Below, piece by piece: positions 757 through 60,200 of a DNA stretch of 64,000 bases (position 1 is the stretch's first letter; the number at the start of each line of letters is the position of its first letter). The notes under the pieces were generated by a model. The model had not been told where the DNA came from, made no database searches, and saw only the letters and a program-made list of their open reading frames with translations. This DNA comes from Tubulanus polymorphus (Eukaryota; Animalia; Nemertea). The position numbers and the translations under genes were made by a program. The stretch is taken from positions 31,458,250 to 31,522,249 of the forward strand of contig NC_134026.1 in NCBI RefSeq assembly GCF_964204645.1, given 5' to 3'.

Positions 757-1525
757 ATGATGGATGCTATTAGTTATCAGCAGAGGAATTTCGCCTCTGT
801 TATTCACAGTATAAATAAAGAGTTGATTGAAAAAGGTAAAACATGTCGTAGTTTTTACTGTCGTGTGTTTGTTCTATTTTTAGTTACTGTTTTGCTATGT
901 GTCAATAAATCCCCCTCCCCCAACCCGAACATCTGATCCCCTTATATAGACCCGCAGTTCTAACCCCCCAATACTTGGTGGTATGATCACTGTGGCTCTG
1001 ACAGTAACCCGGCACCACTCAGTGGTCATACTGTGTTGTAATTGGGCTCTTGTCATTACGATAAAAATGCATGAAGAAATAGTTCACATTCCAGGCTAAT
1101 TGCAAGATGTTGTTATTTATGAATTTTCTTCTGTTTTATTGTTTACAATCCATGCTTGTATTCTGTATTTTACCCTTGTATTCTGTACCCTGTATTCTGT
1201 ATTCTGTACCCTGTATTCTGTACCCTGTATTCTGTATTCTATACCCTGTATTACATTAATGCTCATTAGATGAAACCATTAAACTATAAAACTGCAATAA
1301 ACTGTAATTACATTCAACAAGGGAGAGACAGAGAGAGCCCCACTCGCCAGTGCTCACTCCCTACATCTCTCATCATCGCAATTCTGATATTTTATTTGAT
1401 AATTTAGGTCATGTTGGAGGAGTAGGAGCTGGAGGAGGAGGTGGAGGAGGTTTAGATCATAATCAGATGGATTACTCAATAGATACATCACCTCAATCTC
1501 ATCATCAGCATCATCATCAGCAGCA

Positions 1526-1589
<64 letters not shown>

Positions 1590-4500
1590 TCACAACAATA
1601 TCATCATCATCAGATGTCATCAAATATACCAGTAATAGAACATAAACAACTGATGACTGAAATGAGTAAGTATAACCCCCGGGGGGGGGGGGGGGGGGTT
1701 GGTAAGGGATGTATATCACAGGAAGGGGAGGAGGGGTGGAGGGGTGCGTTGGTGTAGTTTGATGGTGGATCCAAGCTGTACAGCTGTTGATTTTCTAGTA
1801 TTTCTGACTCAATCAACAAATCAGCAAAGCTTTAAATCCTCACAATGCAACAAACCCTCGGCCCTCTCCTACTCACCTTGTCTGGGATAAGCCCCTTTTC
1901 AAGATCTCTCACCCCCCAATACTGAAGTCTCGTGTAGAAATCTTTGCAGGTATTGTTAACAACAATCTCTTTCTCATTGATTCAGGGGCTCAGAACTTTG
2001 ATGTGATCCGGTTCGCCACCTATAGGACAGCGTGTAAACTACGATTCATACAAAAGAAAACTAGTCGTGAGTATTTATTAATTATCAATAGCAGACGACA
2101 GTGGGGTCGACTGGGGTATGACAGCAGACGACAGTGGAGTCAACTGGGGTACGACAGCAGACGACAGTGGGGTCGACTGGGGTACGACGGCAGACGACAG
2201 TGAGGTCGACTGGGGTACGACGGCAGACGACAGTGGGGTCGACTGGGGTACGACAGCAGACGACAGTGGGGTCGACTGGGGTACGACAGCAGACGACAGC
2301 GGAGTCAACTGGGGTACGACAGCAGACGACAGTGAGGTCAACTGGGGTATGACAGCAGACGACAGAGAGGTCGACTGGGGTACGACAGCAGACGACAGAG
2401 AGGTGATCCTAGAGTATGGCATCACAGAGAGTCGCGAGGCGCTGACCTACATCCAGTCGATCAGCGGTCTGTAGAACTAATGATATATTTGATCTTTTAT
2501 TTCAGTGCATTTAGTGGATATTTGGAATATAATTGAAGCATTCCGAGACAATGGATTAAACACATTGGATCACAATATCGAACTGAGTTTAACGCGGGTC
2601 GAATCTTTACTGAATTCCATTTATTATCAGTTAAACAAACGATTACCAAACGTACAACAAGTCAATCCTCAAATTATTATATCACAATTACAAAACTGGC
2701 TTCTCTACGTCTACGACAGGTATGTATCTACATGGTCAAATCAGTTAAACCCGGTCAAATCAGTTAAACATCACAGTCATCGCATCATCCCTATTTCTGA
2801 GTTCTAATTTATATTTATGATTCAGCATTACTTAAAACTCTAAGTCATCATTTGGATAAGTCATCAACATAATGATAGGCACATCTATGACAATGACTTC
2901 AGCAATGAGTTCCCGTGTAGTAACTGTTTAATATGATAATTATTTCAGAGAAGGCCGTGGTAAATTACGTGTGCTATCGGTGAAAGTGGCCCTGGCAATC
3001 ATGTGTTCTGGTAAACTCATGGATAAACTAAGATGTAAGTATATCCAGTATAACATGTAGAAATGGTATACGTGTTGGTGTAGTGAGTGTCAGGGCTGAA
3101 TCGTGTTGGTGTAGTGAGTGTCAGGGCTGAATCTCTGTGGGTGTCATGTCTCATACACGTGCTGTTGCTGCTCTATTTCAAGACAGATGTTTTAAAAAGA
3201 CAAAAGATACTTTTTTAAAGAATTAACTTCTCTTATTGACACCTTCAACTGACATTTGAATTAATGAGAAACGCTTCTGTTTGGTTCCAACTACCTCGAG
3301 ATAGTCCAAGTTTATTCCATTAATAGTAACTAACATTAACTAAAGTAAATGAAAGATTAATTCATTCATCCTTGGAATCTTTGGTATGGAACTCCACCTA
3401 CAAATAAACAACCACATTATTTCATGTTCATTCATGTGGGCCTCGTTTTCATGAGTTATTATTTTCAAATCAGCGTACCTTGGTTGAATTGTTGGGGCAT
3501 CTGTTGGTGGTTCTGTTGGGGCATCTGGTACTGGTTTTGTGGCATCTGGTTTTGGTTTTGGGGCATCTGGAATTGGTGTTGGGGCATCTGGAATTGGTGT
3601 TGGGGCATCTGGTTTTGGTTTTGGGGCATCTGGAATTGGTGTTGGGGCATCTGGAATTGGTGTTGGGGCATCTGGTTTTGGTTTTGGGGCATCTGGAATT
3701 GGTTTTGTGGCATCTGGTTTTGGTGGTGGGGCATCTGGTTCTGGTTTTGGGGCATCTGGAATTGGTTTTGTGGCATCTGGTTTTGGTGGTGGGCCATCTG
3801 GTTTTGGTTTTGTGGCATCTGGAATTGGTGTTGGGGCATCTGGTTTTGGTTTTGGGGCATCTGGAATTGGTTTTGTGGCATCTGGTTTTGGTGGTGGGGC
3901 ATCTGGTTTTGGTGTTGGGGTATCTGGAATTGGTGTTGGGGCATCTGGTTTTGGTGTTGGGGTATCTGGAACTGGTTTTGTGGCATCTGGTTTTGGTTTT
4001 GAGGCATCTGGAATTGGTTTTGGGGCATCTGGAATTGGTGTTGGGGCATCTGGTTTTGGTGGTTGGGCATCTGGAATTGGTTTTGTGGCATCTGGTTTTG
4101 GCGTTGGGGCATTTGGTTTTGGTATTGTGGCATTTGGTTTTGGGGCATCTGGTTTTGGCGTTGGGGCATTTGGTTTTGGTATTGTGGCATTTGGTTTTGG
4201 GGCATCTGGTTTTGGCGTTGGGGCATTTGGTTTTGGTATTGTGGCATTTGGTTTTGTGGCATCTGGTTTTGGTTTTGTGGCATCTGGTTTTGGTTTTGTG
4301 GCATCTGGTATTGGTTTTGTGGGGGTTTGAATTGGTTTTGTGGTTGCTGGTATTGTTGTGGTTGTGGTTGTTGATATTGGTTTCGTGCTTGTGGTTGTTG
4401 GTATTGTTGTGGTTGTTGACCTGGTTGTTGTGCTGGTTGTTGAGCAGTGTTTTGTCCTTGTTTAGTAGCAGCTCCTGGAACATACATGTACACATTACAT

Positions 4501-7500
4501 ACATGTACACATTAGATACATGTACGGGTACACATGTACACATCAAATTATTCTATCTGGAATTCAATGATAATATTTCCTTTTTTTTTTTTCTGAATAC
4601 AACAATGAATTACCTCCATTTTGTTTTGCCTTTTTCTTTGCTTCGGCCTCCTTTCTTTTTCTATCAAGTTCCATCACAAATTCTTTTGTCCACGGTTTTG
4701 GTCCAGTGGTATAACTTTTCGGTAAAGATGGAGGTTTCATAAACGACGACATCAGATCATTGCTACCTCCTCCTCCTCCGGTTAAACTAGGAAGGGATAA
4801 ACCTCCACTACCTCCACCACCTCCAAACGATCCACCTCCTAAGTCAGGAATCTTTGGTAATTCACCAAAATCGAATCCAGGAGGTGTTTTTTGTCCTACA
4901 TCGAGACTAACTGCAAATAAACCAAGTTTATTACGATAGGTAGAACACAATATCCGTGTTGACGCGATGAGGAGAGAATCCCACAATGATAATAAAAAGT
5001 CCGAAAATGAAAACTTCGAGATAGTAGTTTATTCAACGTTTCGACTATATCCTAATAGTCATCTTCAGGAATAATGAGATACTACAGAAATTATGAGATA
5101 TATATACAATCCAGAGACAAAGAGACTAATTCAAGTAATCAGAGATGATACAAACTAAAGGAAAATTAACGTAGAAACAGTTACACGCTAAAATAGATTA
5201 AAGGGAAGCAAACTAAGGGGTGATTATAAACAACAATAGTGAGTATAAATATAAATGAAACTCAAAGTCAGTAATAAAAAGAAAGACAAACTAAGGGGCA
5301 CTTAAATTAAAACAAAGGTGAATACAAGTTAAGTCAGAGACGAAATTGATGAGAGAACAAATAACAAATAATCAAAGGGGAAATCAAGTGTTGAGTTTAA
5401 CCAGTTTACAGAGGAATTTTGATATAAGTTTATTATGGGGTGAAAAACCATTATTAAGGTTTACAACGTTGTTCGAATTTTCAATAATTAATGCAGATTC
5501 CAAAATATGTCTTCTAGTTTTATCGCTGCAAGGGTAAACTAATTCAGCATTAGCAAAATCAAAATTGTGTGAAGTCTGAAAAACATGACTAGCAACTCCG
5601 CTTTCAGGTTTAAAGTTTTTTACATCTAATTTATGCTCTTTTATGCGTTGATTAAGATTCCGACCTGTTTCTCCTATATATACTTTGTCGCAAACTTTAC
5701 AAGGTATTTTATAAATTCCACAGTTTAGGGATTCGGTTTTCGGTTTGTTGTTAATCAATATGTTACTAAGTTTATTATTGTATTTAAAGATGAGTTGTTT
5801 ATTTAGTGACCGAAGAGAAACTTTAGAATTCTCGAGGAAAGGTACATACGGTACAATGATAGGCTGTTTATCGGTAGCCAACGTAGGAGTTCTAAGGTTG
5901 TTATTTCTAAAATGCGTAGTACGAGCTTTAAGTAGAGCTTTTTTCAATAGGAAATCGGGGTAGGCAAGTTTTTTGAGAGATTGGTTAATATGGTGAATTT
6001 CATCGGGTAGAAATGAGGGGTCGCAAATTCTCAAAGCGCGAAGAAATAATCCTTGAGCTAAACCGAGTTTAATATCCGGAGAAGTAAAAGAGAAGTAATG
6101 GAGGTAAGATTCAGCGTTGGTAGGTTTCCTATAAACCGCGAATTTCAAAAAGGATCCACAGTTAAAAATCAAAACATCCAGAAAAGGTATTTTACTATTA
6201 GATTCCCATTCATACGTAAAAGCCAGAGACGGGTAAAGGGAGTTTAAATATATAAGAAAGTTATCAACATTGAAGTCAAAGGGAACCAAAGCCAGAACAT
6301 CGTCAACATATCTGAGCCAGATTTTAGGGTGAATATCAGTGTAAAGAGGCAATATTTCAGATTCAACATGTTCTAGGAATAAATTAGCTAGAATAGGACT
6401 TAGAGGATTTCCCATAGCGATACCGAATGTCTGTTCGTAAAAACAATTGTTGAATTCAAAAAAGGAGTCCGTCGTACAAATAGAGATAAGGTCGATGATA
6501 CAAACCAAGTTTATATCGGTAAAATACTGTGGCATTGAGCAGACGTGTCGGAGGTCTGATCATGAGGATACTTACACGGACTTTTACCCAGAACATCTGT
6601 AACATAAATAACATATACATTATAAAAAACATCACGCAGTGAAGAACGACTGTTAACATTAGAGAGAGAGACATAGAGTAGATCGGTTCTGATCAGTGCA
6701 CAGACGTTCTCTTGAGAATTAACGCTTGGAATTTTTAGTTGCAAGGAAAAAGGTGATGAGTTAAGAAGAGTTTTACATCCCAACTGCAATTAGTAACAGT
6801 TTAACCCTAGTGGGTCTTAAGAGACGGCCAGGGCCTTTTTATAGGTTGTTATGGCTAAGTTAGCAGAGCTTAGTCCATGTCTCGACAGCCAACACCTGAG
6901 GTGATTTCGAACTAGGGACCTCTCGGTTCCCAGTCCTCCACTCAACCAACTGAGCTAACTGCACAGGACATGAGAATCTGAGTTCATTGTGGAAGGTTTT
7001 ACTGTAGATGAGAAAAAGGATAAAATGAAAGATAATTACCTGAGGTGTAAAGAATACTGATAACTATAAAGACAAGTGTGGACTTCATGGTTTCAGTAAG
7101 GCTAATGAATTCTAACTGCGTTTTACATGTGGGTACAAGTGTTGATTAATAGATATTGCACCTACGCTCAATTCCTATCTGTAACTGTCTCGTGTCTTAT
7201 TGTAGCAGGTTTTTTCTGTCTGAATGTTCGGGAATGTTGACAGTCTAGACAATGATCCGGGTCTCACGTGTGAAATACCATTCGTCACACATTTCACACG
7301 TTTAACAACATTTTTTAATGAACTAAAAAGTATTTAAGATATATCGACTTCGTTCTTCTCCACGTCAGACGTAGCTATGACTATTTCTAGTTTTAATAAT
7401 TGAATTTCCGTAGCGCCCTTTTCACTGATACAATGTTCAACAACGCTACACATTAAATTGGTATTTTTACCCCTAACCTTCTAACTCTAACCATGTATCA

Positions 7501-10500
7501 GTCATCTCTCCCATTTATCACTTCCGGCAATGAGGTCACTGAGGATAAATGTGTTGCCCGGGGACACTAGGGTAGTATGAGGTTTGAACCCGCGACCTGG
7601 CTGCCCAGAGTCGACCACTCGCCCCCACACTGATCTAAACCGTAACAGCTGTATATGTTTTTTATATATTACAGATATCTTCACTCTGGTGTCTGATAAT
7701 AATGGAATTTTACTACGACACAAATTTGAAGAATTTCTCAAAGATTCTCTTTCTCTACCGTGTTCGGTTTATGAAGAACCTTCGTTTGGTTATAATGAAG
7801 CTTGTTCCAGATCTATATTTGATGGGGTATGTATCCTCTTTAACCATTGATGTAAGGTAAAAATAAAAAGTGTCTGAAATGTTTCCTCGAAGCAAGTAGT
7901 TTATTTAATATTTCCACTTTATCCTGAGTCATCTTCAGGAATACTGATTCAACACTTTACCTATATTCTAAAAGTCATCTTCAGGAATACTGAATGTTAC
8001 CCTATTGATGAAACACTCTGAGTCCGTGTTGTGAAGATAATAAAAAATCCCTACACAATAAAAACAAACCGAAGTCCTAAGTGTTTCCTCGAGCTAATAG
8101 TTCATTCAACACTTTACCTGAAGCTTTGTACTTCAACTTCAGTATTCCTAAAGATGAGGATATTGTCGAAACAATGAATAAACTACACTAGCTCAAGGAA
8201 TGCAGTATTCCTGAAGATGACTATTAGGATAAAGTCGAAACGTTGAATAAACTACACTAGCTCAAGGAATACAGTATTCCTGAAGATGACTATTAGGATA
8301 AAGTCGAAACGTTGAATAAACTACACTAACTCAAGGAATACAGTATTCCTGAAGATGACTATTAGGATAAAGTCGAAACGTTGAATAAACTACACTAGCT
8401 CAAGGAATACAGTATTCCTGAAGATGACTATTAGGATATAGTCGAAACGTTGAATAAACTACACTAGCTCAAGGAATACAGTATTCCTGAAGATGACTAT
8501 TAGGATAAAGTCGAAACGTTGAATAAACTACACTAACTCAAGGAATACAGTATTCCTGAAGATGACTATTAGGATAAAGTCGAAACGTTGAATAAACTAC
8601 ACTAGCTCAAGGAATACAGTATTCCTGAAGATGACTATTAGGATATAGTCGAAACGTTGAATAAACTACACTAGCTCAAGGAATACAGTATTCCTGAAGA
8701 TGACTATTAGGATATAGTCGAAACGTTGAATAAACTACACTAGCTCAAGGAATACAGTATTCCTGAAGATGACTATTAGGATAAAGTCGAAACGTTGAAT
8801 AAACTACACTAACTCAAGGAATACAGTATTCCTGAAGATGACTATTAGGATAAAGTCGAAACGTTGAATAAACTACACTAGCTCAAGGAATACAGTATTC
8901 CTGAAGATGACTATTAGGATATAGTCGAAACGTTGAATAAACTACACTAGCTCAAGGAATACAGTATTCCTGAAGATGACTATTAGGATATAGTCGAAAC
9001 GTTGAATAAACTACACTAGCTCAAGGAATACAGTATTCCTGAAGATGACTATTAGGATATAGTCGAAACGTTGAATAAACTACACTAGCTCAAGGAATAC
9101 AGTATTCCTGAAGATGACTATTAGGATAAAGTCGAAACGTTGAATAAACTACACTAGCTCAAGGAATACAGTATTCCTGAAGATGACTATTAGGATAAAG
9201 TCGAAACGTTGAATAAACTACACTAGCTCAAGGAATACAGTATTCCTGAAGATGACTATTAGGATAAAGTCGAAACGTTGAATAAACTACACTAGCTCAA
9301 GGAATACAGTATTCCTGAAGATGACTATTAGAATATAGTCGAAACGTTGAATAAACTACACTAGCTCAAGGAATACAGTATTCCTGAAGATGACTATTAG
9401 GATAAAGTCGAAACGTTGAATAAACTACACTAGCTCAAGGAATACAGTATTCTGAAGATGACTATTAGGATAAAGTCGAAACGTTGAATAAACTACACTA
9501 GCTCAAGGAATACAGTATTCCTGAAGATGACTATTAGAATATAGTCGAAACGTTGAATAAACTACACTAGCTCAAGGAATACAGTATTCCTGAAGATGAC
9601 ATTAGGATAAAGTCGAAACGTTGAATAAACTACACTAGCTCAAGGAATACAGTATTCCTGAAGATGACTATTAGGATAAAGTCGAAACGTTGAATAAACT
9701 ACACTAGCTCAAGGAATACAGTATTCCTGAAGATGACTATTAGGATAAAGTCGAAACATTGAATACATGTAGTATAGTGTGATGTGAAGCTATGACACTG
9801 ATATTGAAATGTAGAGTTCTAATTCTTTGTAGAGAGGAAAAATAAATGTGAATGATTTTCTGGATACAATGATGTCAGATCCCGGACCTCAGTGTTTACT
9901 ATGGTTGCCAATTCTACATAGAATGGCTGGAGTTGAAAATGGTAGGTTTAAAACATTGAAAAAAATTCTGTTATCAAAAAATGTTATCAAGGCTTGACTA
10001 TTGATTATATTTCAGTATTTCATCCCGTTCAATGCGAAGGCTGCCACCGAGAATCGTTTATGGGATTTCGATATAAATGTCAAAGATGTTATAATTATCA
10101 GTTGTGTCAGGATTGTTTCTGGAGAGGACGAACGTCTGGTAACCATAGCAACGATCATGAAATGAAGGAATATTCGTCGTATGTGAGTATATTCACCACC
10201 AGGTGGCGCTGCTGCTGTTGCGATGGTGATGATGGTTTTTATCGCTTTCATTAACCGGTTTTATTTCAGTACGATGAGTTGTCTGTTTTTTTCCATGCAT
10301 ATCTCTCAGGATTCAGTATGTACACTACTAACTGTCGATTGGAATCCTCGTCTTGTTTTACCCCTCCCTTTCCTTATTGACTTAGTTTAGTTCTAGCACT
10401 GGCGATGTCAGTTTAGTTCTAGCACTGGCGAGTGAGCGTCAGTATAGTTCTAGCACTGGCGAGTGAGCGTCAGTATAGTTCTAGCACTGGCGAGTGAACG

Positions 10501-13500: not shown

Positions 13501-16500
13501 AATAGTTTACAGTCCATTCAAATACTTCATGTGAATACAGTGAAACTCACTGAGTTGTGACAATCATTACTTTCACTTAATTAACCCTTTCAGTGCTGAC
13601 TAATCAATACCCTATAGTGATGGAGATAATTTGAAAATTTTGAGAAATTCCGCCCTAGTGTGCTGAATAACGGGAATACCACTATAGTGTGTCTACACAG
13701 TGCGTTAGTTACTAGTATTTCACTATGTTTGACACGTGCTGCCATTTTTCAACAGAGATAATTACTATTTACATCAATACACCGCAGTGCGGTGTACTAG
13801 CAAAATCATCACTGATTCGTACACCGCACTGCGGTGTAGACGCACTGAAAGGGTTAATAGATTTGAGACTAGATCTGAACTAATGATATGATGACCTTTC
13901 TGAACTAATGATATGATATGATATGATATGATATGATATGATATAATATATTGTAGAATCACGGATCACCGCGATCTACGCCAGGAAGTAGCCCGAGATC
14001 ACGTTCTGGTCACTCTCCGTCTCGAGCTAGTAGCACCCCGAGTACGCCGGCTGATTCATTATCGGGATTCGGCTCGGATGTACGTCAAGCATTCCAGAAT
14101 CAACAACAGGGTAATACTACAAACAGTACACGGAGTTTACGTAATGATTTATTAGTCGCGGCAGACTCAGTGACGAACGCGATGTCATCGTTAGTAAAAG
14201 AGTTAAATTCAGAAGCGTCGAGTGAAAGTGGTGATGATGATGTCATCAGTAATCGCAAGAGTTTAGGTGAGTTACAAACCCACCCCCACACCCCCACACC
14301 CATCTAACAAACTGTGAACTCACTACCCCCACACCCCACACCCATCTAACAAACTGTGAACTCACCACCCCCACACCCCACACCCATCTAACAAACTCTG
14401 AACTCACTACCCCCACCCCCACACCCCACACCCATCTAACAAACTGTGAACTCACTACCCACACCCCCACACCCATCTAACAAACTATGAACTCACTACC
14501 CCCACACCCCCACACCCATCTAACAAACTGTGAACTCACTACCCCCACACCCCACACCCATCTAACAAACTGTGAACTCACTACCCCCGACCCCCACACC
14601 CATCTAACAAACTATGAACTCACTACCCCCACACCCCACACCCATCTAACAAACTGTGAACTCACTACCCCCACACCCCACACCCATCTAACAAACTCTG
14701 AACTCACTACCCCCACCCCCACCCCCCACACCCATCTAACAAACTCTGAACTCACTACCCCCACCCCCACACCCCACACCCATCTAACAAACTGTGAACT
14801 CACTACCCACACCCCCACACCCATCTAACAAACTATGAACTCACTACCCCCACACCCCACACCCATCTAACAAACTGTGAACTCACTACCCACACACCCC
14901 CCACCCCACACCCATCTAACAAACTGTGAACTCACTACCCCCACCCCCACACCCATCTAACAAACTGTGAACTCACTACCCCCGACCCCACACCCCACAC
15001 CCATCTAACAAACTGTGAACTCACTACCCCCACCCCCACACCCATCTAACAAACTGTGAACTCACTACCCCCACCCCCACACCCATCTAACAAACTGTGA
15101 ACTCACTACCCCCACACCCCACACCCATCTAACAAACTGTGAACTCACTACCCCCACACCCCACACCCATCTAACAAACTGTGAACTCACTACCCCCACA
15201 CCCCACCCAACTCTCCATCTAACAAACTGTGAACTCACTACCCCCACCCCCACCCAACTCTCCATCTAACAAACTGTGAACTCACTACCCCCCAACTCTC
15301 CATCTAACAATCTCTGAACTCCACTTCCCCAAACTGTGACAGAGTTTCCTTTCTGGGGTTTGCTCTAAGCTCTCAACCACAACAATTGATAGTTTGAGTG
15401 CTGACAGTTTCGTTCCCCGGCCTGTCGACCTTTCTGACCCATTGATGAATTCAATAAAACTGAGTCACTATTTTGCTAAATACTGTAACAAATTAATGTA
15501 ATTGATATGAATAGATTTTGAAGTAGAATGTGACAATGCGTTAGAGCAGACGACAGATTACTCCGGTTGGAAGGAAGAAATCAAACGTAGATTCGGTGAA
15601 GAAACTCAATTTATGCACGAACTTCATTCGAGAAGAGAAAGAGTTAAATCTGTAGATTATAACGACATCGGAAATGAAAAGTGAGTAGATCTTTTGAAGG
15701 TTTATTTCGTAGGGGGTGTCTTCCTCCTGAGTCTCCTCGTAGGGGGTGTCTTCCTCGTAGGGGAATGTCTTCCTCATGAGTCTCCTCGTAGGGAATGTCG
15801 TCCTTGCGAGTCTCCTCACAGGGGGTGTCTTCCTCATGAGTCTCCTCACAGGGGTGTCTTCCTCATGAGTCTTCTTGTATGGGAATGTCGTCCTTGTGAG
15901 TCTCCTCACAGGGGAATGTCGTGTCATCCTCTCCTCACAGCCTCACAGGGGACACATTTCAGGGTTGACTCATGATCTGTTCACAGCTCATTCACGTTAA
16001 ACTGTTTTTATTGTAGTTATATAAATATAACACGTGAAGAAATTGAACCGTATTTGAATATAAAACGACGCGAGGACGTGGACAGCGTCGACGCCGAGTC
16101 TTACGTCAGGACTGACGACGAGAGCTGTCATTTTAGAACGGATGATGAAGATGCTGAATTATATGATCAGGATCCAAAGGTAAAATATCCCCTCCCATAT
16201 TCAACCTGGAGTTCCCTCCCATATTCAACCTGGAGTTCCCTCCCATATTCAACCTGGAGTTCCCTCCCATATTCAACCTGGAGTTCCCTCCCACATTCAA
16301 CCTGGAGTTCCCTCCCATAATCAACCTGGAGTTCCCTCCCATATTCAACCTGGAGTTCCCTCCCATATTCAACCTGGAGTTCCCTCCCATATTCAACCTG
16401 GAGTTCCCTCCCACATTCAACCTGGAGTTCCCTCCCATAATCAACCTGGAGTTCCCTCCCATATTCAACCTGGAGTTCCCTCCCATATTCAACCTGGAGT

Positions 16501-25799: not shown

Positions 25800-27070
25800 A
25801 TTAGTAGCTGAAATTTAGATGCAAAAAAAGATATCCTGTAATGACAAAATATTTCAATAAGAATTAATCGTAATAATTCCATGTATATCAAGTTACCTTT
25901 TATGATTGCTGGTTTTGTTATTGGCGATTATCTCGTTAGTTGGTTGGTTAATGAATTCGATTCTGTTGGCCTCATCTGTTCGCTGTTCCAGTTGGTCGAT
26001 TTTGGACGAGTAGTTGATCTCAAACTGGGTTTTTTCTCATAATTGAAATTTAGCTGCAATGATTAAAAGAAGATATCCTGTAATGACAAAATATTTCAAT
26101 AAGAATTCATCATAATAATTACATGTATATCAAGTTACCTTTTAAAATTGTTTGGTTCGTAATCGGTGTGGATCATCTAAGTTTGTTGGTAAATGAGTTG
26201 AATTCTAATTGGCCTCATCTGTGCGCTGTTCCAATTGGTTGATTTTAGATGAGTAGTTGATCTCAAGCTGGGTTTTTCTGATAGTTGAAATTTAGCTGCA
26301 ATGACTAAAAGAAGATATCCTGTAATGACAAAATATTTCAATAAGAATCAATCATAATAATTTCATGTATATCAAGTTACCTTTTATGATTGCTTGGTTC
26401 GTAATCGGCGTGGATCATCTCAGTTGATTGATAAATGAGTTGCATTCTAATTGGCCTCATCTGTGCGCTGTTCCAGTTGGTCGATTTTGGACGAGTAGTT
26501 GATCTCAAGCTGGGTTTTTTCTGATAGTTGAAATTTAGCTGTAATGATTAAAAGAAGATATCTTGTAATGACAAAATATTTCAATAAGAATTAATCGTAG
26601 TAATTTCATGTATATCAAGTTACCTTTTATGATTGCTTGGTTATCGGCGATTATCCTATTAGTTGGTTAGTTAGTTGGCCTCATCTGTGCACTGTTCCAG
26701 TTGGTCGATTTTGGACGAGTAGTTGATCTCAAGCTGGGTTTTTTCTTATAGTTGAAATTTAGCTGCAATGATTAAAAGAAGATATCCTGTAATGAAAAAA
26801 TATTTCATTTAGAATTTATCGAAATAATTCCATGTATATCAAGTTACCTTTTATGATTGCTTGGTTATCGGCGATGATCCTATTAGTTGGTTAGTTAGTT
26901 GGCCTCATCTGTGCACCGTTCCAGTTGGTCAATTTTGGACGATTAGTTGATCTCAAACTGGGTTTTTTCTTATAGTTGAAATTCAGCTGCAATAAAAGAT
27001 ATCCTGTAATGACAAAATATTTCATTTAGAATTTATCATAATATTCCCATAAAAATAAACTTACATGTTA
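25800..27070 (-). repeat. ~230-245-bp tandem repeat, each unit resembling an exon plus a GT-AG intron on the minus strand
   Basis: About 5.5 copies with aaaag|gtaacttg donors and cttttaatcattgcag|ctaaat acceptors; no consistent open frame. Confidence 0.7.
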
Positions 27071-27226
27071 AGATTGATTGGTTGAGTATCGGTGACAATC
27101 TTCTGAGTTGGTTGGATTTTTCTGCGAGCGATTGGTAGATTTTGTTTGGTTGAGTATCGGTGATGATCATCTGAGTTGGTTTGATTCTTCTGCCGGGAGC
27201 GAAACAGGCGTTTTTTTTCAAAATCG

Positions 27227-27929: not shown

Positions 27930-30450
27930 ATTCATCTATATTCTAGATATCTAAGCAATGGTTGATTATCATAGTTTAACAGCAATTCGATTAAAGCATC
28001 TATAGTCATCTTCAGGAATACCAGAGTTACAACAAATTAAATAATGCATAATCAATCTTATCAAATTGTTTTTGTACTGTTTCCCTATATACATTTCGAT
28101 TGTCAGCTAAACCATGTTCGTACTATCAAACTAACTTCAGTTAATAAACTTTAAGAGATATGTTTTCTACCCATAGGTGGTGACATCTGTGCCCAGTGAA
28201 TGTTATTCTAATCCATTCCAGTAATTCTAAATATTGCTTCTTATATTTACTGTTTACAGCTGCATATTTACAGCTTCTTATACTTACAGTTTTCTTATCA
28301 ACCCCTACGGTTTAGATTTGAGCACTTTTACCTTATATGAAGATGCTGAATTAATCTTCATCTTAGATACCTAATCACTCAATTAATTTCCTAGCTATAA
28401 TTAAAATTGTCTCTGACAATGTTTTATACGGGGCTTGATATTTCTACACGACAAGAATTTCAGATCTGGTTTCGATTGATCACTATTTCAAAATGCTTAT
28501 TTTGCATCAGAGCTTTTGATATCTAGTTTGACGAATACAGTATTCCCCAAAACCTAACTGATTCAATAGATCCCACACACATGTCGTCCAGTCATGACGC
28601 AGGTGACATTGCACGATACAGTCGTCTCATCCAATGCACTATTCTTTAAATACTTTTCACTTATATTCATTACATTGAATTGATTTTAATTAATCTTCTA
28701 GATATCTAAGCGATCCGTTAATTAGTAATCATACTAGCTACATTTTAATAGTCAGTTGAACACGGAGCCTGAAAATCTACATGAGTAGAATTTCAGATGT
28801 GGTGAATTAATCACTATTATGAATTCATCAGAAATTAAGATAAAAGCACATTTAAGTGGTAAATTAGAAATTCCCTTAAAGCCGATTTGCTATGTAATCT
28901 TTATTTCCCTTTTATAGTAGTACACTGTGTATAAGGATCGAAAGACCTTGTTATGACTGGACCTCCCTGGTGCGGTGCAAGACATGATGCTAGAAAATAG
29001 TTTGAAGGAGAGGGGTTAGTAAAAGAGAGCTATTAGCAAGAGGAATAAGACCTAAGTTAAGGACATCCTGTCAGAATAAGGCTCTCAATCTGACATACAC
29101 AGTGAAATTGAAATATTCCCCCTTCCAAATTCAGGAATGTATTTGTGCACGTACAGATTTGTTTCATCTCCCTTCGATCGGAAGTAAATCTGCGTGAAAT
29201 GATTTTGGCAATATGTATCAAAACTAATACAGCTGTATGAAGACACAATACTTAGATACAGATAAATAAATGTGCTTTAAATTTCCATGGACCTGAATTA
29301 AAAACTATTTCAAATAACATATTGAATTTACCTTAATCGTAGATATCTTATAGTAATACATTAATGAGTTATTCACCTTTGATTTTAATTGTCAGTTAAA
29401 CAATATCTATTACGCGTAACTTGACACACAGTATGGCTTTTAGATGAATCAGTTAAGTTTTGGTAAATTTTGGCAATATTGAAGACCAAGACCAGTCGCC
29501 GTAAGCACGGCAGTTGGAGATGTAAATACTGATCAGTCGATGAGACTGATTCAGATGTGCTCATACATATATCAGCTATATTTAAATTTTCAGTTTAACA
29601 ACATTTATATTATGGACCTGTATTACATATAAATAGTATTTGATCTTACATGAAATACTAAATTCAACTTAATTGTGGATCTAAGCCATTGGTTGATGAG
29701 CAATTTGTCCTATCTATACATACATGATAATTTTCAGTTAAATAATAATCATAGCGCAAAACAAGGCACAAGTATGGCTCTGTGGAATGTTTTGAACCAA
29801 TTAAAGCTTTGTTTTATTCTAGATTTATCAAAGTGGTGAGACCTAATCAAGGTTTCTGAAAAACCCGCAGTCCATAGATTTCCCCATATATATATTACAC
29901 CAGATCTCGATAGAGCCCTAGACACTATTTTATTCATCTTTCCCCCAGAAATTCATTAATGTAATGGGTAAAGCAGCATATAATATATAAGTGCCTGAAT
30001 GTTTATAAATGTATCAATATACTATTTGTAAAAAAAATCTATTAACTGACGATAAATTTGATTGATATATATCTTTACAAGTAAAGCCAGCCTAAATGTA
30101 TACGGGGCCCTAAAATATCTACACCAGAAGAGTTTCTCGTCAAACATTATAAGATATTGAATGATTGCTAATATCTAAGCGATTGGTTAATTAGTAAATT
30201 GTCCTATCTATATCTTGATTGTCAGTTAAACAATAGTCATATGAGGCCTGAATTATCTACGGTACATTCAGAAATTTTCATAAGATATTGAATTTACCTT
30301 AATTGTACATACTTACAAAATCTTTTAATCAATAACTGACCAATCTACATTTTAATTATCAGACCAAAGAATAATCAAGGGACCTCACTCAATCATTTCG
30401 CCTTGTAAATATTCAAGCAATCATTGCCCTAGCTATATTTCAATTTACTT
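27930..30450. repeat. Old, degenerate satellite-like region
   Basis: Recurrent motifs atatctaagc(g/a)attggtt, ttgtcctatctata, ttgtcagttaaacaata and gcctgaa(a/t)tatctac. Confidence 0.5.
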
Positions 30451-50990: not shown

Positions 50991-53900
50991 ATGGTCCTGT
51001 ATATATGGATCCAGGTGGCGCTACTGATTTTCATACAGTCTAGACCTGTATATGCTATCAAACATGGAGATAGTGGTAAGTGTTAGCCCGATCTAAGCCC
51101 GATCGAAGCCCATTTTTGTTCTATAACCAAATTTAAACTCATTATTCGTTAAAGACTGTACAATATTTGATTGTGTTGTGTATATTTTCTATAGGTTTTG
51201 TGCTTGATGGGAAACGTACTGATAATGCTATTATATTAGTGGGACGGTTGTTCAGTGTCAATTGTACGCTGGATCCTAAAGTATTTCGAAACCCGAACAG
51301 AGTTATTTATTTAAAAGCAACGACCTCTGCGAGTATCCAGAAACAATTAGAGAGCGGTAACTTCACGAAAAGATTCGACCCATGGACGTTCGGTATCGTG
51401 AATTTAAAACTCACAATACCGTTGAAAAAACTACTGTTTCAGTGTTATTATGATGGTGGAAAACCAAAACCGGATTGGATTGAGAACTTTCATCTCACGA
51501 CATATCGTAAGTACCTTAGACACATACACTGGTATGTGACTCTTATCTGAGACATATACACTGGTATGTGACTCTTACCTGAGACACATACACTGGTATG
51601 TGACTCTTACCTCAGACACATACACTGGTATGTGACTCTTACCTCAGACACATACACTGGTATGTGACTCTTACCTGAGACACATACACTGGTATGTGAC
51701 TCTTACCTCAGACACATACACTGGTATGTGACTCTTACCTGAGACACATACACTGGTATGTGACTCTTACCTGAGACACATACACTGGTATGTGACTCTT
51801 ACCTCAGACACATACACTGGTATGTGACTCTTACCTGAGACACATACACTGGTATGTGACTCTTATCTGAGACACATACACTGGTATGTGACTCTTACCT
51901 GAGACACATACACTGGTATGTGACTCTTACCCGAGACACATACACTGGTATGTGACTCTTATCTGAGACACATACACTGGTATGTGACTCTTACCTGAGA
52001 CACATACACTGGTATGTGACTCTTACCTCAGACACATACACTGGTATGTGACTCTTACCTGAGACACATACACTGGTATGTGACTCTTATCTGAGTCACA
52101 TACACTGGTGTGTGACTCTTACCTGAGACACATACACTGGTATGTGACTCTTACCTGAGACACATACACTGGTATGTGACTCTTATCTGAGTCACATACA
52201 CTGGTATGTGACTCTTACCTGAGACACATACACTGGTATGTGACTCTTACCTGAGACACATACACTGGTATGTGACTCTTACCTGAGACACATACACTGG
52301 TATGTGACTCTTACCTGAGACACATACACTGGTATGTGACTCTTACCCGAGACACATACACTGGTATGTGACTCTTACCCGAGACACATACACTGGTATG
52401 TGACTCTTACCTGAGACACATACACTGGTATGTGACTCTTATCTGAGACACATACACTGGTATGTGACTCTTACCTGAGACACATACACTGGTATGTGAC
52501 TCTTACCTGAGACACTGGTATGTGACTCTTACCTGAGACACATACACTGGTATGTGACTCTTATCTGAGACACATACACTGGTATGTGACTCTTACCTCA
52601 GACACATACACTGGTATGTGACTCTTACCTCAGACACATACACTGGTATGTGACTCTTACCTCAGACACATACACTGGTATGTGACTCTTACCTCAGACA
52701 CATACACTGGTATGTGACTCTTACCTGAGACACGTACACTGGTATGCGAGACTGACTATTATTTATTTCTGATTACAGCTGAAGTTGTTCTGCCACGTTT
52801 GGAGGACCTCGAGATAACATCGAGTAACTGGGCCTCAATGAATGTCTCCTGGTGTAAAATCAATCAGAACAATACGTATCAGTTTAAGAATTTGGGGGTG
52901 CAGCAAGTGAATTGGTTTCCATTAGAGTATTACAGACGTTCCGCGTAAGTATAACATTCACGGTCTACCATAGAATACCTTCAGCTTGCCATTCACGGTC
53001 TACCATACATTTACTTGATGATTTTGAAATGCTTGAATGATGTAATTCTGTAATTTGTGGTGGCATCGATTTTGTAGTCGTTGTAATTTTGATAATCGGA
53101 TAATTTCTTACAAAATTTGTAGCTTATCATAATCATAGCTGATATCTTAATCCTCATGGCCCAGTTGCAAAGTCATGTCTAAAAGTTGCCTTAGAATTGG
53201 TTATTAAACCAAAATTAGCTTAGACTGGTCTTAAGTTGTTAGATCGGTTATAGAACCAAAATGAGTTAAGACTGGTCTTAAGTTGTTAGATTGGTTATAG
53301 AACCAAAATGAGCTTAGACTGGTCTTAAGTTGTAAGATTGGTTATAGAACCAAAATGAGCTTAGACTGGTCTTAAGTTGTAAGATTGGTTATAGAACCAA
53401 AATGAGCTTAAACTGGTCTTAAGTTGTAAGATTGGTTATAGAACCAAAATGAGCTTAGACTGGTCTTAAGTTGTAAGATTGGTTATAGAACCAAAATGAG
53501 CTTAGACTGGTTTTAAGTTGTTAGATTGGTTATAGAACCGAAATGAGCTTAGACTGGTCTTAAGTTGTTAGATTGGTTATAGAACCAAAATGAGCTTAAA
53601 CTGGTCTTAAGTTGTTAGATCGGCTATAAAACCAAAATGACTGGTCTTACGTTGTTAGATTGGTTATAGAACCAAAATGAGCTTAGACTGGTCTTAAGTT
53701 GTTAGATTGGTTATAGAACCAAAATGAGCTTAGACTGGTCTTAAGTTGTTAGATTGGTTATAGAACTAAGTTGGTCTTGGACCGGTGTTAAATCTTATGC
53801 AATGACTGTGCAACTGACCTCAGATTATTTAATCCTAATCCTTAGATTCAGAGATAATCCCTCGTTTCATCCATTCTCTTTGATTGATTGTTTTCACCCA

Positions 53901-57200: not shown

Positions 57201-60200
57201 TTCAGTAAGTTGTTATACATTTTATACATTGGAATTAGTCACTCAACAAGATTTCATCAAACTTCATCATTTCATCGAGAATGACTTTTGTCTGATGATT
57301 GGTGGGGACTGCTGCAGAGTGACTGCAGGTGGGGATTACTGCAGAGTGACTGCAGATGGGGATTACTGCAGATGGGGACTGCTGTAGAGTGACTGCTGTA
57401 GAGTGACTGCTGTAGAGTGACTGCTGTAGAGTGACTGCTGTAGAGTGACTACTGTAGAGGGACTGCTGTAGAGTGACTGCTGTAGAGTGACTGCAGGTGG
57501 GGACTACTGTAGAGTGACTGCTGTAGAGTGACTGCTGTAGAGTGACTGCAGATAGGGACTACTGCAGAGTGACTGCAGATGGGGATTACTGCAGAGTGAC
57601 TGCAGATGGGGATTACTGCAGAGTGACTGCAGATGGGGATTACTGCAGATGGGGACTGCTGTAGAGTGACTGCTGTAGAGTGACTGCTGTAGAGTGACTG
57701 CTGTAGAGTGACTGCTGTAGAGTGACTGCTGTAGAGTGACTGCAGGTGGGGACTACAGCAGATGGGGATTACTGATCAGTGACTGCAGATAGGGACTACT
57801 GCAGAGTGACTGCAGATAGGGACTACTGCAGAGTGACTGCAGATAGGGACTACTGCAGAGTGACTGCAGATAGGGACTACTGCAGAGTGACTGCAGATGG
57901 GGACTACTGTAGAGTGACTGCAGATGGGGACTACTGTAGAGTGACTGCAGATAGGGACTACTGTAGAGTGACTGCAGATAGGGACTACTGCAGAGTGACT
58001 GCAGATAGGGATTACTGCAGAGTGACTGCAGATAGGGACTACTGCAGAGTGACTGCAGATAGGGACTACTGCAGAGTGACTGCAGATGGGGACTACTGCA
58101 GAGTGACTGCAGAAAGGGACTACTGCAGAGTGACTGCAGATAGGGACTACTGCAGAGTGACTGCAGATGGGGACTACTGTAGAGTGACTGCAGATGGGGA
58201 CTACTGTAGAGTGACTGCAGATAGGGACTACTGTAGAGTGACTGCAGATAGGGACTACTGCACAGTGACTGCAGATAGGGACTACTGCAGAGTGACTGCA
58301 GATAGGGACTACTGTAGAGTGACTGCAGATGGGGACTACTGTAGAGTGACTGCAGATGGGGACTACTGTAGAGTGACTGCAGATGGGGATTACTGCTCAG
58401 TGACTGCAGATAGGGACTACTGCACAGTGACTGCAGATAGGGACTACTGTAGAGTGACTGCAGATAGGGACTACTGCAGAGTGACTGCAGATAGGGACTA
58501 CTGTAGAGTGACTGCAGATGGGGACTACTGTAGAGTGACTGCAGATGGGGATTACTGCTCAGTGACTGCAGATAGGGACTACTGCAGAGTGACTGCAGAT
58601 AGGGATTACTGCAGAGTGACTGCAGATGGGGACTACTGTAGAGTGACTGCAGATGGGGACTACTGTAGAGTGACTGCAGATAGGGACTACTGCAGAGTGA
58701 CTGCAGATAGGGACTACTGCAGAGTGACTGCAGATGGGGACTACTGTAGAGTGACTGCAGATAGGGACTACTGCAGAGTGACTGCAGATAGGGACTACTG
58801 CAGAGTGACTGCAGATGGGGACTACTGTAGAGTGACTGCAGATAGGGACTACTGTAGAGTGACTGCAGATAGGGACTACTGCACAGTACAGGTTAGATAT
58901 ATATCACATATTCATCATCATATATCTTGTTTGACTATTCCAATTATATCAAAAAGCATTGTTAACAACAATTTACAGGTCGGGCTAACCAGTTACAGGT
59001 CGGGCTAACCAGTTACAGGTCGGGCTAACCAGTTACAGGTCGGGCTAACCAGTTACAGGTTGGGCTAACCAGTAACAGGTCGGGCTAACCTGTTACAGGT
59101 CGGGCTAACCAGTTACAGGTCGGGCTAACCTGTTACAGGTCGGGCTAACCAGTTACAGGTCGGGCTAACCTGTTACAGGTCGGGCTAACCAGTTACAGGT
59201 CCGGCTAACAAGGAATCAATAAAATTAACTATTGCTGATTGTTGATAACATGGATATAATGGTGTAACACGTGACACATTCAGATTTCTATTATACTTAA
59301 ACAACAAAAATAGCTGAAATTCAGTGATATTTGCATAAGCTGCTAAACCCTGCCTGCCCTACATACAAAAATAACCAATCAAATGACAACTATTGCGCTA
59401 AAACGCTGTTTATAGATGTAGATAAAATATGAATCAGTTTCTAGAGATTTTCCTCTGTATCTGAGGCAGTGGCCTCAGTAAATGAGGCTGATACTCTATA
59501 ACTGGGATGATATTTCTGTATCTGAGGCAGTGGCCTCAGTAAATGAGGCTGATACTCTATAACTGGGGTGATATTTCTATATCTGAGGCAGTGGCCTCGG
59601 TAAATGAGGCTGATACTCTATAACTGGGGTGATATTTCTATATCTGAGGCAGTGGCCTCGGTAAATGAGGCTGATACTCTATAACTGGGGTGATATTTCT
59701 GTATCTGAGGCAGTGGCCTCGGTAAATGAGGCTAATACTCTATAACTGGGGTGATATTTCTGTATCTGAGGCAGTGGCCTCGGTAAATGAGGCTGATACT
59801 CTATAACTGGGGTGATATTTCTGTATCTGAGGCAGTGACCTCGGTTAATGAGGCTGATACTCTATAACTGGGGTGATATTTCTATATCTGAGGCAGTGGC
59901 CTCAGTAAATGAGGCTGATACTCTATAACTGGGGTGATATTTCTGTATCTGAGGCAGTGACCTCAGTAAATGAGGCTGATACTCTATAACTGGGGTGATA
60001 TTTCTGTATCTGAGGCAGTGACCTCAGTAAATGATGAACAATAACCCAAAATACTAAATTAACCGTATGAAATAATAAATGGTGAAATGGTTCTTCTCCT
60101 ACACGTTACTCACCAGGGCGGCGTGCCTATGGGCGGGCTGGTGGGCTATCAGACAGGCAGGTAGGTGGATGGAGAAATGGGTGGGCTATCAGACAGGGGG

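Follow-up and report, generated by a model that had tools for sequence, protein, structure and literature searches.

Minimal hammerhead ribozymes reside in the pseudo-LTRs of Penelope-like elements (PLEs), for which Cervera and de la Pena (2014; PMC4209133) describe a core in which a single unpaired nucleotide separates A9 from G10.1, a G10.1–C11.1 base pair, a palindrome at positions 15.2–16.2 without loop 3, and a 5-bp helix I. In the 64,000-nucleotide stretch of Tubulanus polymorphus DNA analysed here (the window), a dystrobrevin intron holds an array of motifs that agree with these ribozymes in all of the above features, and in their location in a PLE tail. A further point in common is that the paper describes motif pairs on opposite strands, 100–700 bp apart. 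Most of its motifs, however, are single or flank an element of ~3 kb, whereas here a piece of tail is repeated in ~23 head-to-tail copies, 69 bp apart. Like the array, animal non-LTR retrozymes, as characterized in PMC7229834 and in a preprint by Li, Clavereau and Pollet (2026; bioRxiv 10.64898/2026.07.22.740005), consist of tandem units that each carry a type-I hammerhead, trace back to the ends of PLE pseudo-LTRs, and in many cases lie in introns (43.9% in Xenopus tropicalis). For hammerhead tandem repeats, the preprint gives consensus lengths of 51–972 bp, a PLE pseudo-LTR origin and expansion by unequal crossover; the unit length found here is within this range, and the "unusually small" ribozyme satellite of the initial annotation no longer holds. 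The preprint's working definition of a non-LTR retrozyme asks for two or more successive units bearing a complete type-I hammerhead and a minimum free energy below -5 kcal/mol, and the array has 22 consecutive units of this kind. Expressed retrozymes (Cervera and de la Pena 2020; PMC7229834) are described as ~170–400 nt long, mostly canonical, and efficiently cleaving in invertebrates, whereas the present unit is 69 nt long with a minimal hammerhead, and any unit-length RNAs or mobility of the 69-bp unit itself would be hypothetical. In the double-hammerhead RNAs of newt satellite 2 and avocado sunblotch viroid (Forster et al. 1988, as cited in PMC4209133), two neighbouring copies pair with each other in place of a helix III that is unstable or missing, a principle that would also apply to the array; those RNAs, however, are said to have a short looped helix III and proven cleavage, whereas helix III in the array is a 4-nt palindrome only and cleavage is a prediction. 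Finally, the intronic hammerheads of amniotes (RECK, CTCL and DTNB; review PMC6155905) are also placed in sense orientation, one of them in a dystrobrevin gene by coincidence.

On the plus strand, the array extends from 8141 to 9765 in 23.3 copies of a 69-bp unit that are 98% identical (Tandem Repeats Finder: 8157–9765, period 69 and 23.3 copies, with 98% matches, 0% indels and a score of 3071). When AGTATTC is taken as the anchor, 24 units begin at positions between 8141 and 9720, and these comprise a first unit of 63 nt (8141–8203), 22 full units (8204–9719; 69 bp, except for two of 68 bp), and a partial last unit (9720–9765) that consists of the hammerhead only and ends with GAATA. Each full unit reads UAUUC-CUGAAGA-U-GACU..AGUC-GAA-ACGU-U, then GAAUA and a 25-nt linker, and the unit junction in the DNA is GGAATAC followed by AGTATTCC. 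Both edge units are decayed: the first (84–86% identity to inner units) has the core CUAAAGA, and thus lacks G5, with a shortened helix II, ACAAU for ACGUU and an intact linker, and the last has ACAU for ACGU. Of the full units, 8 are T variants, in which helix II has 6 bp, and in the 14 A variants it has 4 bp. Specific to the array are TAACT in the linker, A in helix II, and TAGAAT. Variants are arranged in blocks of several units, such that a linker-A unit, an A unit and then one, two or three T units occur three times between 8273 and 9100, and a TAGAAT unit followed by two A units occurs twice from 9308. The window has 11 tandem arrays of at least 500 bp, and array formation is therefore common in it.

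A complete minimal type-I hammerhead is present in 23 units: none of the core nucleotides is missing, helix II is preceded by an extra U, the site is GUU and helix I has 5 bp, while an ACGU palindrome stands where helix III and loop 3 would be. When the units are compared with the feature list in PMC4209133, the core (C3-U4-G5-A6-N7-G8-A9 ... G12-A13-A14, A15.1/U16.1, H17 not G) is found as CUGAAGA ... GAA-ACGU-U in 23 of 24 units, the single nucleotide between A9 and G10.1 is a U followed by GACU...AGUC with the G10.1–C11.1 pair, and the palindrome that would allow a dimer is ACGU in 22 of the 23 core-bearing units. The short helix I (4–5 bp in the list) is UAUUC/GAAUA, and helix II covaries. 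Every stem and core position is at consensus in 20 of the 23 motif-bearing units; of the other three, one lacks a C where helix I meets C3 (9446), one lacks a U in helix II (9583), and one is the last unit with its ACAU. The descriptor CTGANGA-N6-30-GAAA-N2-12-TH has 23 plus-strand matches inside the array and none on its minus strand, and 47 matches in the whole window versus 8.5 ± 4.4 in shuffles, none of 100 shuffles reaching 47. The 69-nt array of 23 minimal hammerheads proposed in the initial annotation is thus borne out by repeat finding, descriptor search and unit listing. A role for the minus strand of the array was rejected on the descriptor result, and a coding role for the unit because of stops in its frames. 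The linker hairpin GGAAUA-CAG-UAUUCC was likewise rejected as helix I, since position 17 would then be a G and C3 would be paired.

Relatives in metagenome contigs that share the 5' core (76 distinct sequences) have a 4- or 6-nt palindrome at the place of 15.2–16.2 in 56 cases, versus 13% in shuffles. Their first inner helix II pair varies (CG 21, TA 14, AT 13, GC 6), and extra helix II pairs average 1.5 versus 0.58 in shuffles; the corresponding values for helix I pairs are 2.25 versus 2.07, where the search pattern itself fixed three helix I bases. The check with Rfam hammerhead models (types I, II, III, HH9 and HH10) that had been proposed for the array gave no match at gathering score, nothing over 12 kb with E ≤ 10, and nothing when 301 nt of the array were searched, a result to be expected if these models require helix III. 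What weak Rfam matches there were in the array involved only a coronavirus 3'UTR model (E 9.3), and we regard them as chance.

A PLE copy is located 3 kb upstream in the preceding dystrobrevin intron, on the strand opposite to the array, two points that the initial annotation leaves unmentioned. Its tail hammerhead (5024–5076, minus strand) is identical to the T-variant units in 52 of 53 bases, and in the motif proper (5025–5073) throughout. It lies 3' of an ORF remnant of 383 amino acids (5384–6535, minus strand) that corresponds to the C-terminal part of a reverse transcriptase (RT) and a GIY-YIG endonuclease and was confirmed as PLE-type by a protein atlas search; a further ORF of 92 amino acids, in another frame, is found upstream of the remnant (6511–6789, minus strand). 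The motif therefore has the PLE tail or pseudo-LTR location of the published ribozymes, in agreement with the earlier proposal that the array is PLE-derived and shares its core with the upstream element. Four aligned PLE tail copies have in common GAATAAACT..ACTAGCTC.AGGAA.ACA after the hammerhead, and the entire 69-bp unit, linker included, is thus one contiguous piece of PLE tail, so that each unit carries the PLE-family minimal hammerhead. Where genome contigs have loose ends, these read on as TAGCTCAAGGAA... and ...ACATTTCTGAA, and the latter resembles ACAGTATTCCTGAA at the unit start, which provides a short similarity at the jump-back point. Between the PLE copy and the array is an older inverted arm (7868–7995, minus strand), composed of two decayed hammerhead units joined as GAAU-CAG-UAUUC and PLE tail sequence (83–84% identity to the PLE tail), as well as a third minus-strand fragment (8062–8134) with the 3' half of a hammerhead and tail sequence homologous to the array linker. 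The PLE source, the older inverted arm and the array are all inside 5 kb.

The sequencing runs were available as assembled contigs, from which RNA starts, ends, strand and circles are not readable. The hammerhead block is very high-copy, with 1,449–1,562 contigs matched and a summed depth of 1e5 to 7.5e5 versus 33–39 for the unique flanks in run X1, although such depth sums are not copy numbers and spread tenfold between DNA-like runs; run X6, presumed to be RNA, had no matching contig. Most copies leave the similarity at the ends of a 53–65-nt tail block, and for this reason are probably single tails rather than 69-bp arrays; the 69-nt go-back joint occurs in one X1 contig among those listed. 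In X1, the 119 contigs at the variable helix II position have a summed depth of 679,799, of which 568,000 falls to T, and a similar T bias is seen at 8232 and 8370. The 14 full units with A thus depart from the genome-wide family, and the A breaks the fifth helix II pair, which that family has kept.

The host gene, on the plus strand, encodes EF-hand_2, EF-hand_3 (in two exons) and ZZ domains. The upstream exon (7675–7826), with the N-terminal part of EF-hand_3, is covered exactly by a 915-nt contig of run X4, and the downstream exon (9833–9941), with the C-terminal part, precedes a 74-nt intron (9942–10015). The array makes up 81% of the 2,006-nt GT..AG intron in between (7827–9832), is in sense orientation to dystrobrevin, and leaves 67 nt between its end and the acceptor, in agreement with the initial placement of the array on the gene's own strand, ~70 nt before the acceptor. 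In run X5, a transcript-derived contig of 415 nt has 7826 joined to 9833 and 9941 to 10016; an intron with 23 sense-strand hammerhead motifs is thus still spliced exactly. Slow hammerhead cleavage within an intron is reported to leave splicing intact (PMC2995048). A 76-nt contig of the same run crosses a unit junction (8218–8293, 1 mismatch) at a depth of 55.7, compared with 4.9 for the spliced mRNA, and tandem-type sequence may thus be transcribed. Genomic DNA carried over from a repeat of very high copy number would look alike.

The proposal that tandem copies could supply the dimer partner in cis through ACGU is supported, as the tandem units provide dimer geometry. Folding of the array RNA, however, is predicted to be unfavourable for the ribozyme. 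The 44-nt motif has a minimum free energy of -5.2 (A variant) or -7.6 (T variant) kcal/mol, and the constrained double hammerhead reaches -8.3 and -16.1 kcal/mol versus minima of -17.8 and -22.7, i.e., 6.6–9.5 above the minimum. In a 3-unit transcript, the pairing probability of helix I is only 4e-7 to 6e-6, because the linker segment AGGAAUA is predicted to pair with UAUUCCU, i.e., the helix I 5' strand, and the centroid fold contains helix II hairpins only. Nearest-neighbour folding leaves out tertiary contacts and proteins, with the help of which the RNA might be active. The 22 full units contain five distinct mutational events, three of them in stems or at the helix I/C3 junction, with about half of the unit positions being structural; the mutations appear without bias away from stems, and the pattern looks neutral, with no sign of selection for a ribozyme. 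The 20 intact motifs among 23 and the eight full 6-bp helices II speak against weak cleavage, but in view of the 98% identity they mainly reflect the youth of the array. Because of the helix II pair broken in the majority variant, the neutral mutations, the captured helix I, the energy of the double hammerhead above the minimum, and the exact splicing, the indirect evidence leans against robust self-cleavage, and we predict that the array RNA self-cleaves weakly, slowly or not at all. Published relatives behave similarly: PLE minimal hammerheads are described as cleaving poorly in vitro, dimers or trimers included (PMC4209133), one of nine Xenopus hammerhead dimers was reported to be cleaved (10.64898/2026.07.22.740005), and PMC11167929 describes one PLE hammerhead that was cleaved only in the presence of PLE protein and at whose site RNA-seq showed no ends.

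Based on these observations, we consider it probable that the locus is a 1.6-kb minisatellite of one contiguous 69-bp PLE tail piece, likely born by jump-back and grown by unequal crossing-over, the RNA of which would self-cleave slowly or not at all. The jump-back would have occurred at the short similarity within one PLE tail copy, and the subsequent expansion likely took place as DNA, since variants recur in multi-unit blocks, the edge units are decayed, and arrays are common in the window. Once the intron is transcribed, neighbouring units may pair through their ACGU sequences, and the helix I strand of each may bind GAAUA of the other unit, to form a double hammerhead that would cut after GUU. 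This structure would have to compete with the stronger UAUUCCU–AGGAAUA linker pairing, such that any cleavage would be slow and likely in need of a chaperone such as a PLE protein, and slow cleavage in the intron would be tolerated by splicing.

An origin by reverse transcription, in which the PLE enzyme would have copied a short tail RNA by template jumping or in rolling-circle mode during one integration, with later unequal crossing-over of a now inert array, differs from the preferred minisatellite reading in its origin only. The array is head-to-head with an inverted PLE-tail arm, a placement given as typical of PLE RT integration in PMC8557442, where inverted copies truncated at the 5' end are a recognized mark of PLEs, and in several genome contigs the 5' ends of inverted hammerheads meet with almost nothing in between (7987–7995 to 8204/8343–8347 in X1 and X3; 7992 to 8205 in X5). 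The minus arm is, however, much older (83% vs 98%) and of a different tail subtype, and the two arms therefore need not share one event; moreover, the short similarity at the jump-back point suits DNA slippage equally well, and no target-site duplication is evident in the array flanks. On balance, such a birth appears unlikely. A working miniature retrozyme, in which intron or read-through transcripts of the array are cut as double hammerheads to 69-nt monomers that circularize and are copied back by the PLE RT to build the array, would be in keeping with the complete motifs, the ACGU palindrome in a tandem layout that suits the dimer model, the preprint's working criterion, the high copy number, and the junction contig in a transcript-containing run. 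With variants in blocks and decayed edge units, a majority variant that weakens helix II, a helix I strand predicted to be sequestered, a single go-back joint among the X1 contigs listed where most copies appear to be single tails, published minimal hammerheads that are weak, and contigs that cannot show RNA ends, we find this decidedly unlikely.

Very unlikely, in our estimation, is a protein-dependent ribozyme satellite, in which double hammerheads would chop the dystrobrevin intron into 69-nt RNAs whenever PLE protein is present, and these would serve as templates for the PLE RT and couple transposon activity to host-gene output. By analogy with amniotes, one may also envisage a domesticated ribozyme that regulates dystrobrevin pre-mRNA, given its sense orientation near the acceptor of a conserved gene and the intronic hammerhead in DTNB of birds and reptiles (PMC6155905). 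The amniote motifs are described there as single, canonical type-I and conserved across species, whereas the motif here is minimal and multi-copy, in a young array of a high-copy transposon tail with apparently neutral mutations, and the intron is spliced normally, which makes such a role extremely improbable.

Taken as a whole, the initial interpretation is partly supported. Tandem repeats of PLE-derived hammerheads are already published, and the array adds an instance to a described class, not a new mechanism. As a PLE-tail minisatellite, clean and young, it illustrates how the tail of a transposon that bears a ribozyme becomes a minisatellite in a conserved gene. If the units did cleave, they would yield the smallest unit-length ribozyme-made RNAs, linear or circular, in animals, and would offer a simple substrate for asking whether PLE proteins activate minimal hammerheads.

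The tandem repeat at 8141–9765 (plus strand) is built from 69-bp units, each carrying a minimal type I hammerhead motif. Tandem Repeats Finder places it at 8157–9765 (period 69, 23.3 copies, 98% matches, no indels), and an anchored search for unit starts locates 24 from 8141 to 9720: a decayed first unit of 63 nt (from 8141; core CUAAAGA, shortened helix II, ACAAU), 22 full units (8204–9719), and a final partial unit (9720–9765) that ends at GAATA (9765). A full unit reads UAUUC / CUGAAGA / U / GACU(AU)-loop-(AU)AGUC / GAA / ACGU / U, followed by GAAUA and a 25-nt linker. Every conserved core position is kept, position 17 is U, helix I has 5 bp, the G10.1–C11.1 pair is present, and a single unpaired U separates A9 from G10.1; helix III and its loop are absent, with the 4-nt palindrome ACGU in their place. 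A generic hammerhead descriptor gives 23 plus-strand matches in the array (47 in the whole window vs 8.5 ± 4.4 in shuffles), which bears out the 23 sense hammerheads with a 69-nt monomer reported in the initial annotation. Twenty of these have the consensus at all stem and core positions; of the other three, one has ACAU (9720) and two show a single-base loss, of C where helix I meets C3 (9446) and of U within helix II (9583). The check proposed there, Infernal with hammerhead covariance models, came back empty: the Rfam models do not match the array motif at any threshold tried, probably owing to the absent helix III.

The host gene on the plus strand is of the dystrobrevin/dystrophin type, with EF-hand_2 (2505–2807), EF-hand_3 split over two exons, and ZZ. 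A long CAG/polyglutamine-coding repeat (1350–1757, plus strand), possibly an exon of the gene too, precedes the EF-hand exons. The sequence places the exon before the array at 7675–7826, the GT donor directly after it (7827), and the acceptor AG at 9831–9832 (all plus strand). These boundaries are confirmed by a 415-nt contig from sequencing run X5, in which bases 1–54 correspond to 7773–7826, 54–162 to 9832–9940, and 163–330 to 10015–10182. The same spliced contig confirms a 74-nt GT..AG intron (9942–10015) that separates the EF-hand_3 and ZZ exons. Because of this contig, and because a 915-nt contig from X4 matches exactly 7675–7826, both runs, although listed as of unknown kind, contain transcript-derived sequence. 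The array occupies 1,625 of the 2,006 intron bases in sense to the gene and ends 67 nt from the acceptor, in agreement with the gap of about 70 nt noted previously.

The array had been linked to a Penelope-like element (PLE) upstream with the same hammerhead. That element is real, with a 383-aa ORF at 5384–6535 (reverse transcriptase remnant and GIY-YIG domain) and a hammerhead about 300 nt downstream that agrees at 52 of 53 bases with array units carrying T at the fifth helix II pair (T variant), but it lies on the minus strand within the preceding intron, which had been omitted. Older minus-strand copies are found in the array's own intron, as two decayed hammerhead units (7896–7995) and a hammerhead 3′ half with a tail fragment (8062–8134), and so create a head-to-head layout, as has been reported for PLE insertions (PMC8557442; PMC4209133). 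A minus-strand unit of about 160 nt (7950–8112) runs between two cleavage-site positions, with GAAT, tail, body, and decayed hammerhead; its body (7962–8065) reaches a summed depth of at least 1e4 in the DNA-like run X1, and the unit may represent a short hammerhead element that is non-coding and itself high-copy in the genome. An array-type hammerhead is also represented at 28002–28021 (minus strand) by a lone 5′ fragment (TATTCCTGAAGATGACTAT...), for which a 3′ half cannot be recognised.

Alignment of the array unit, the 3′ tail of the PLE, the decayed minus-strand copies, and the 8134–8062 fragment reveals the post-hammerhead sequence GAATAAACT..ACTAGCTC.AGGAA.ACA in all four, and the linker is therefore PLE tail and not foreign DNA. 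The X1 genome contigs (1,449–1,562 at ≥90%) agree, since most diverge near 9650/9653 at one end and near 9694–9716 at the other, with loose ends that run on as TAGCTCAAGGAA... or ...ACATTTCTGAA. Since the unit starts with ACAGTATTCCTGAA, similar to ...GGAATACATTTCTGAA in the family, the repeat-creating jump-back probably lies in this short similarity, 69 bp apart in one tail. Contigs show the hammerhead block at very high abundance in the genome: its summed depth is 1e5–7.5e5, against 33–39 for the unique flanks in X1, summed depths not being equivalent to copy numbers; a 69-nt go-back occurs in a single contig among the joints listed.

With respect to growth, two blocks recur. The first, seen three times within 8273–9100, has one TAACT-linker unit, one unit with A at the fifth helix II pair (A variant), and, to close, one, two, or three units of the T variant; the second, seen twice from 9308, has a TAGAAT unit ahead of two A units. 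Divergence is greatest in both edge units. Block-wise variants and diverged edges are what duplication of several units at once and unequal exchange between DNA copies produce; a 69-nt circle copied once by a rolling-circle mechanism would not give this pattern. Minisatellite formation is common in the window, as seen from its 11 arrays of at least 500 bp (Tandem Repeats Finder). The complete output has 132 rows, with large arrays at, e.g., 14282–15292, 25823–27115, 51512–52746, and 57305–58887.

The full units, 22 in number, record five distinct mutational events. Two are single-base losses, of C at helix I/C3 and of U in helix II; the other three are substitutions, with A replacing T in helix II (fifth pair) and G→A changes in both loop 2 and the linker. 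Structural positions, about half of the unit, are struck by three of the five, as expected under neutrality. The A variant is present in 14 of 22 full units, yet it is a minority in the genome-wide family: at 9679, T accounts for 568,000 of 679,799 depth in X1 (119 contigs), with comparable shares in X2 and X5 at this position and in X1, X3, X4, and X5 at 8232 and 8370. The A variant cuts helix II from 6 bp to 4 bp; a lone T-variant 44-mer folds into helices I and II (−7.6 kcal/mol), whereas the A-variant 44-mer favours a different fold (−5.2 kcal/mol).

In a two-unit transcript, a nested double hammerhead would be built from three contacts between units n and n+1: the 5′ strand of n with GAAUA of n+1, giving helix I; one ACGU palindrome with the other; and GAAUA of n with UAUUC of n+1. 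Folding constrained to this form gives −8.3 kcal/mol for A,A units and −16.1 kcal/mol for T,T units, compared with minima of −17.8 and −22.7. The minimum-energy fold retains helix II and an AACGUU:AACGUU helix, but pairs UAUUCCU with linker AGGAAUA, burying the helix I strand, C3, and U4. For three units, helix I pair probabilities are 4e-7 to 6e-6, and the centroid fold has helix II hairpins only (overall z-score −3.47). Folding models leave out tertiary contacts and proteins; the predictions argue for a trapped, slowly reacting array RNA, from which inactivity does not follow. At 8250–8280 and at all unit junctions, AGGAAUA, 17–23 nt past the cleavage site, and UAUUCCU, where the hammerhead begins, are complementary. 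In full-length processed PLE RNA these segments would lie near the 5′ and 3′ ends, and their pairing could join the ends; no description of such complementarity was found in the literature consulted.

An exact-pattern scan of metagenome contigs (5′ core, GAC..GTC, GAAAC) gave at least 102 loci, and nearly all of those listed are single-motif loci. Of the 76 distinct listed instances, the first inner helix II pair occurs in four Watson–Crick forms (CG 21, TA 14, AT 13, GC 6), the mean helix II extension is 1.5 pairs vs 0.58 in shuffles, and a palindrome of 4 or 6 nt begins at A15.1 in 56 (13% in shuffles), position 17 being other than G in 51 of these 56. The covarying helix II and the palindromes place the array motif in a widespread, structurally constrained family of minimal hammerheads, a membership that says nothing about activity of the array itself. 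Among the matches listed, ACGU-U-GAAUAAA is common to the window and two loci; loci with the same 5′ core mostly have an ACAUGU palindrome. The contigs are presumably animal DNA in the samples.

The motif shares all features by which Cervera and de la Peña define PLE minimal hammerheads, for which dimeric and trimeric constructs gave low cleavage only (PMC4209133). A biochemical study of an Anolis PLE reports that its hammerhead cleaved only when the PLE protein was present, and that RNA-seq ends were not found at the site (PMC11167929); the expressed circles reported in 2020 by Cervera and de la Peña are of ~170–400 nt (PMC7229834). Slow hammerhead cleavage inside an intron is described as compatible with splicing (PMC2995048, citing Dye et al. 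2006 and Bentley's group). Conserved intronic hammerheads are reported in DTNB of birds and reptiles (review PMC6155905); since the present array is young and transposon-derived, we consider it coincidental that the gene family is shared. Taken together, the indirect evidence makes release of 69-nt RNAs or cutting of the host pre-mRNA at a meaningful rate, as initially proposed, improbable. A 2026 preprint by Li, Clavereau and Pollet (10.64898/2026.07.22.740005), in which tandem repeats were scanned for canonical and minimal type I hammerheads, describes consensus lengths of 51–972 bp, 43.9% of copies intronic in Xenopus tropicalis, derivation from PLE pseudo-LTR ends with local spread by unequal crossover, and cleavage in one of nine dimers. 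The array in T. polymorphus is a PLE-tail hammerhead minisatellite or, equally, a very short non-LTR retrozyme-like array, and as such belongs to an already described class of elements.
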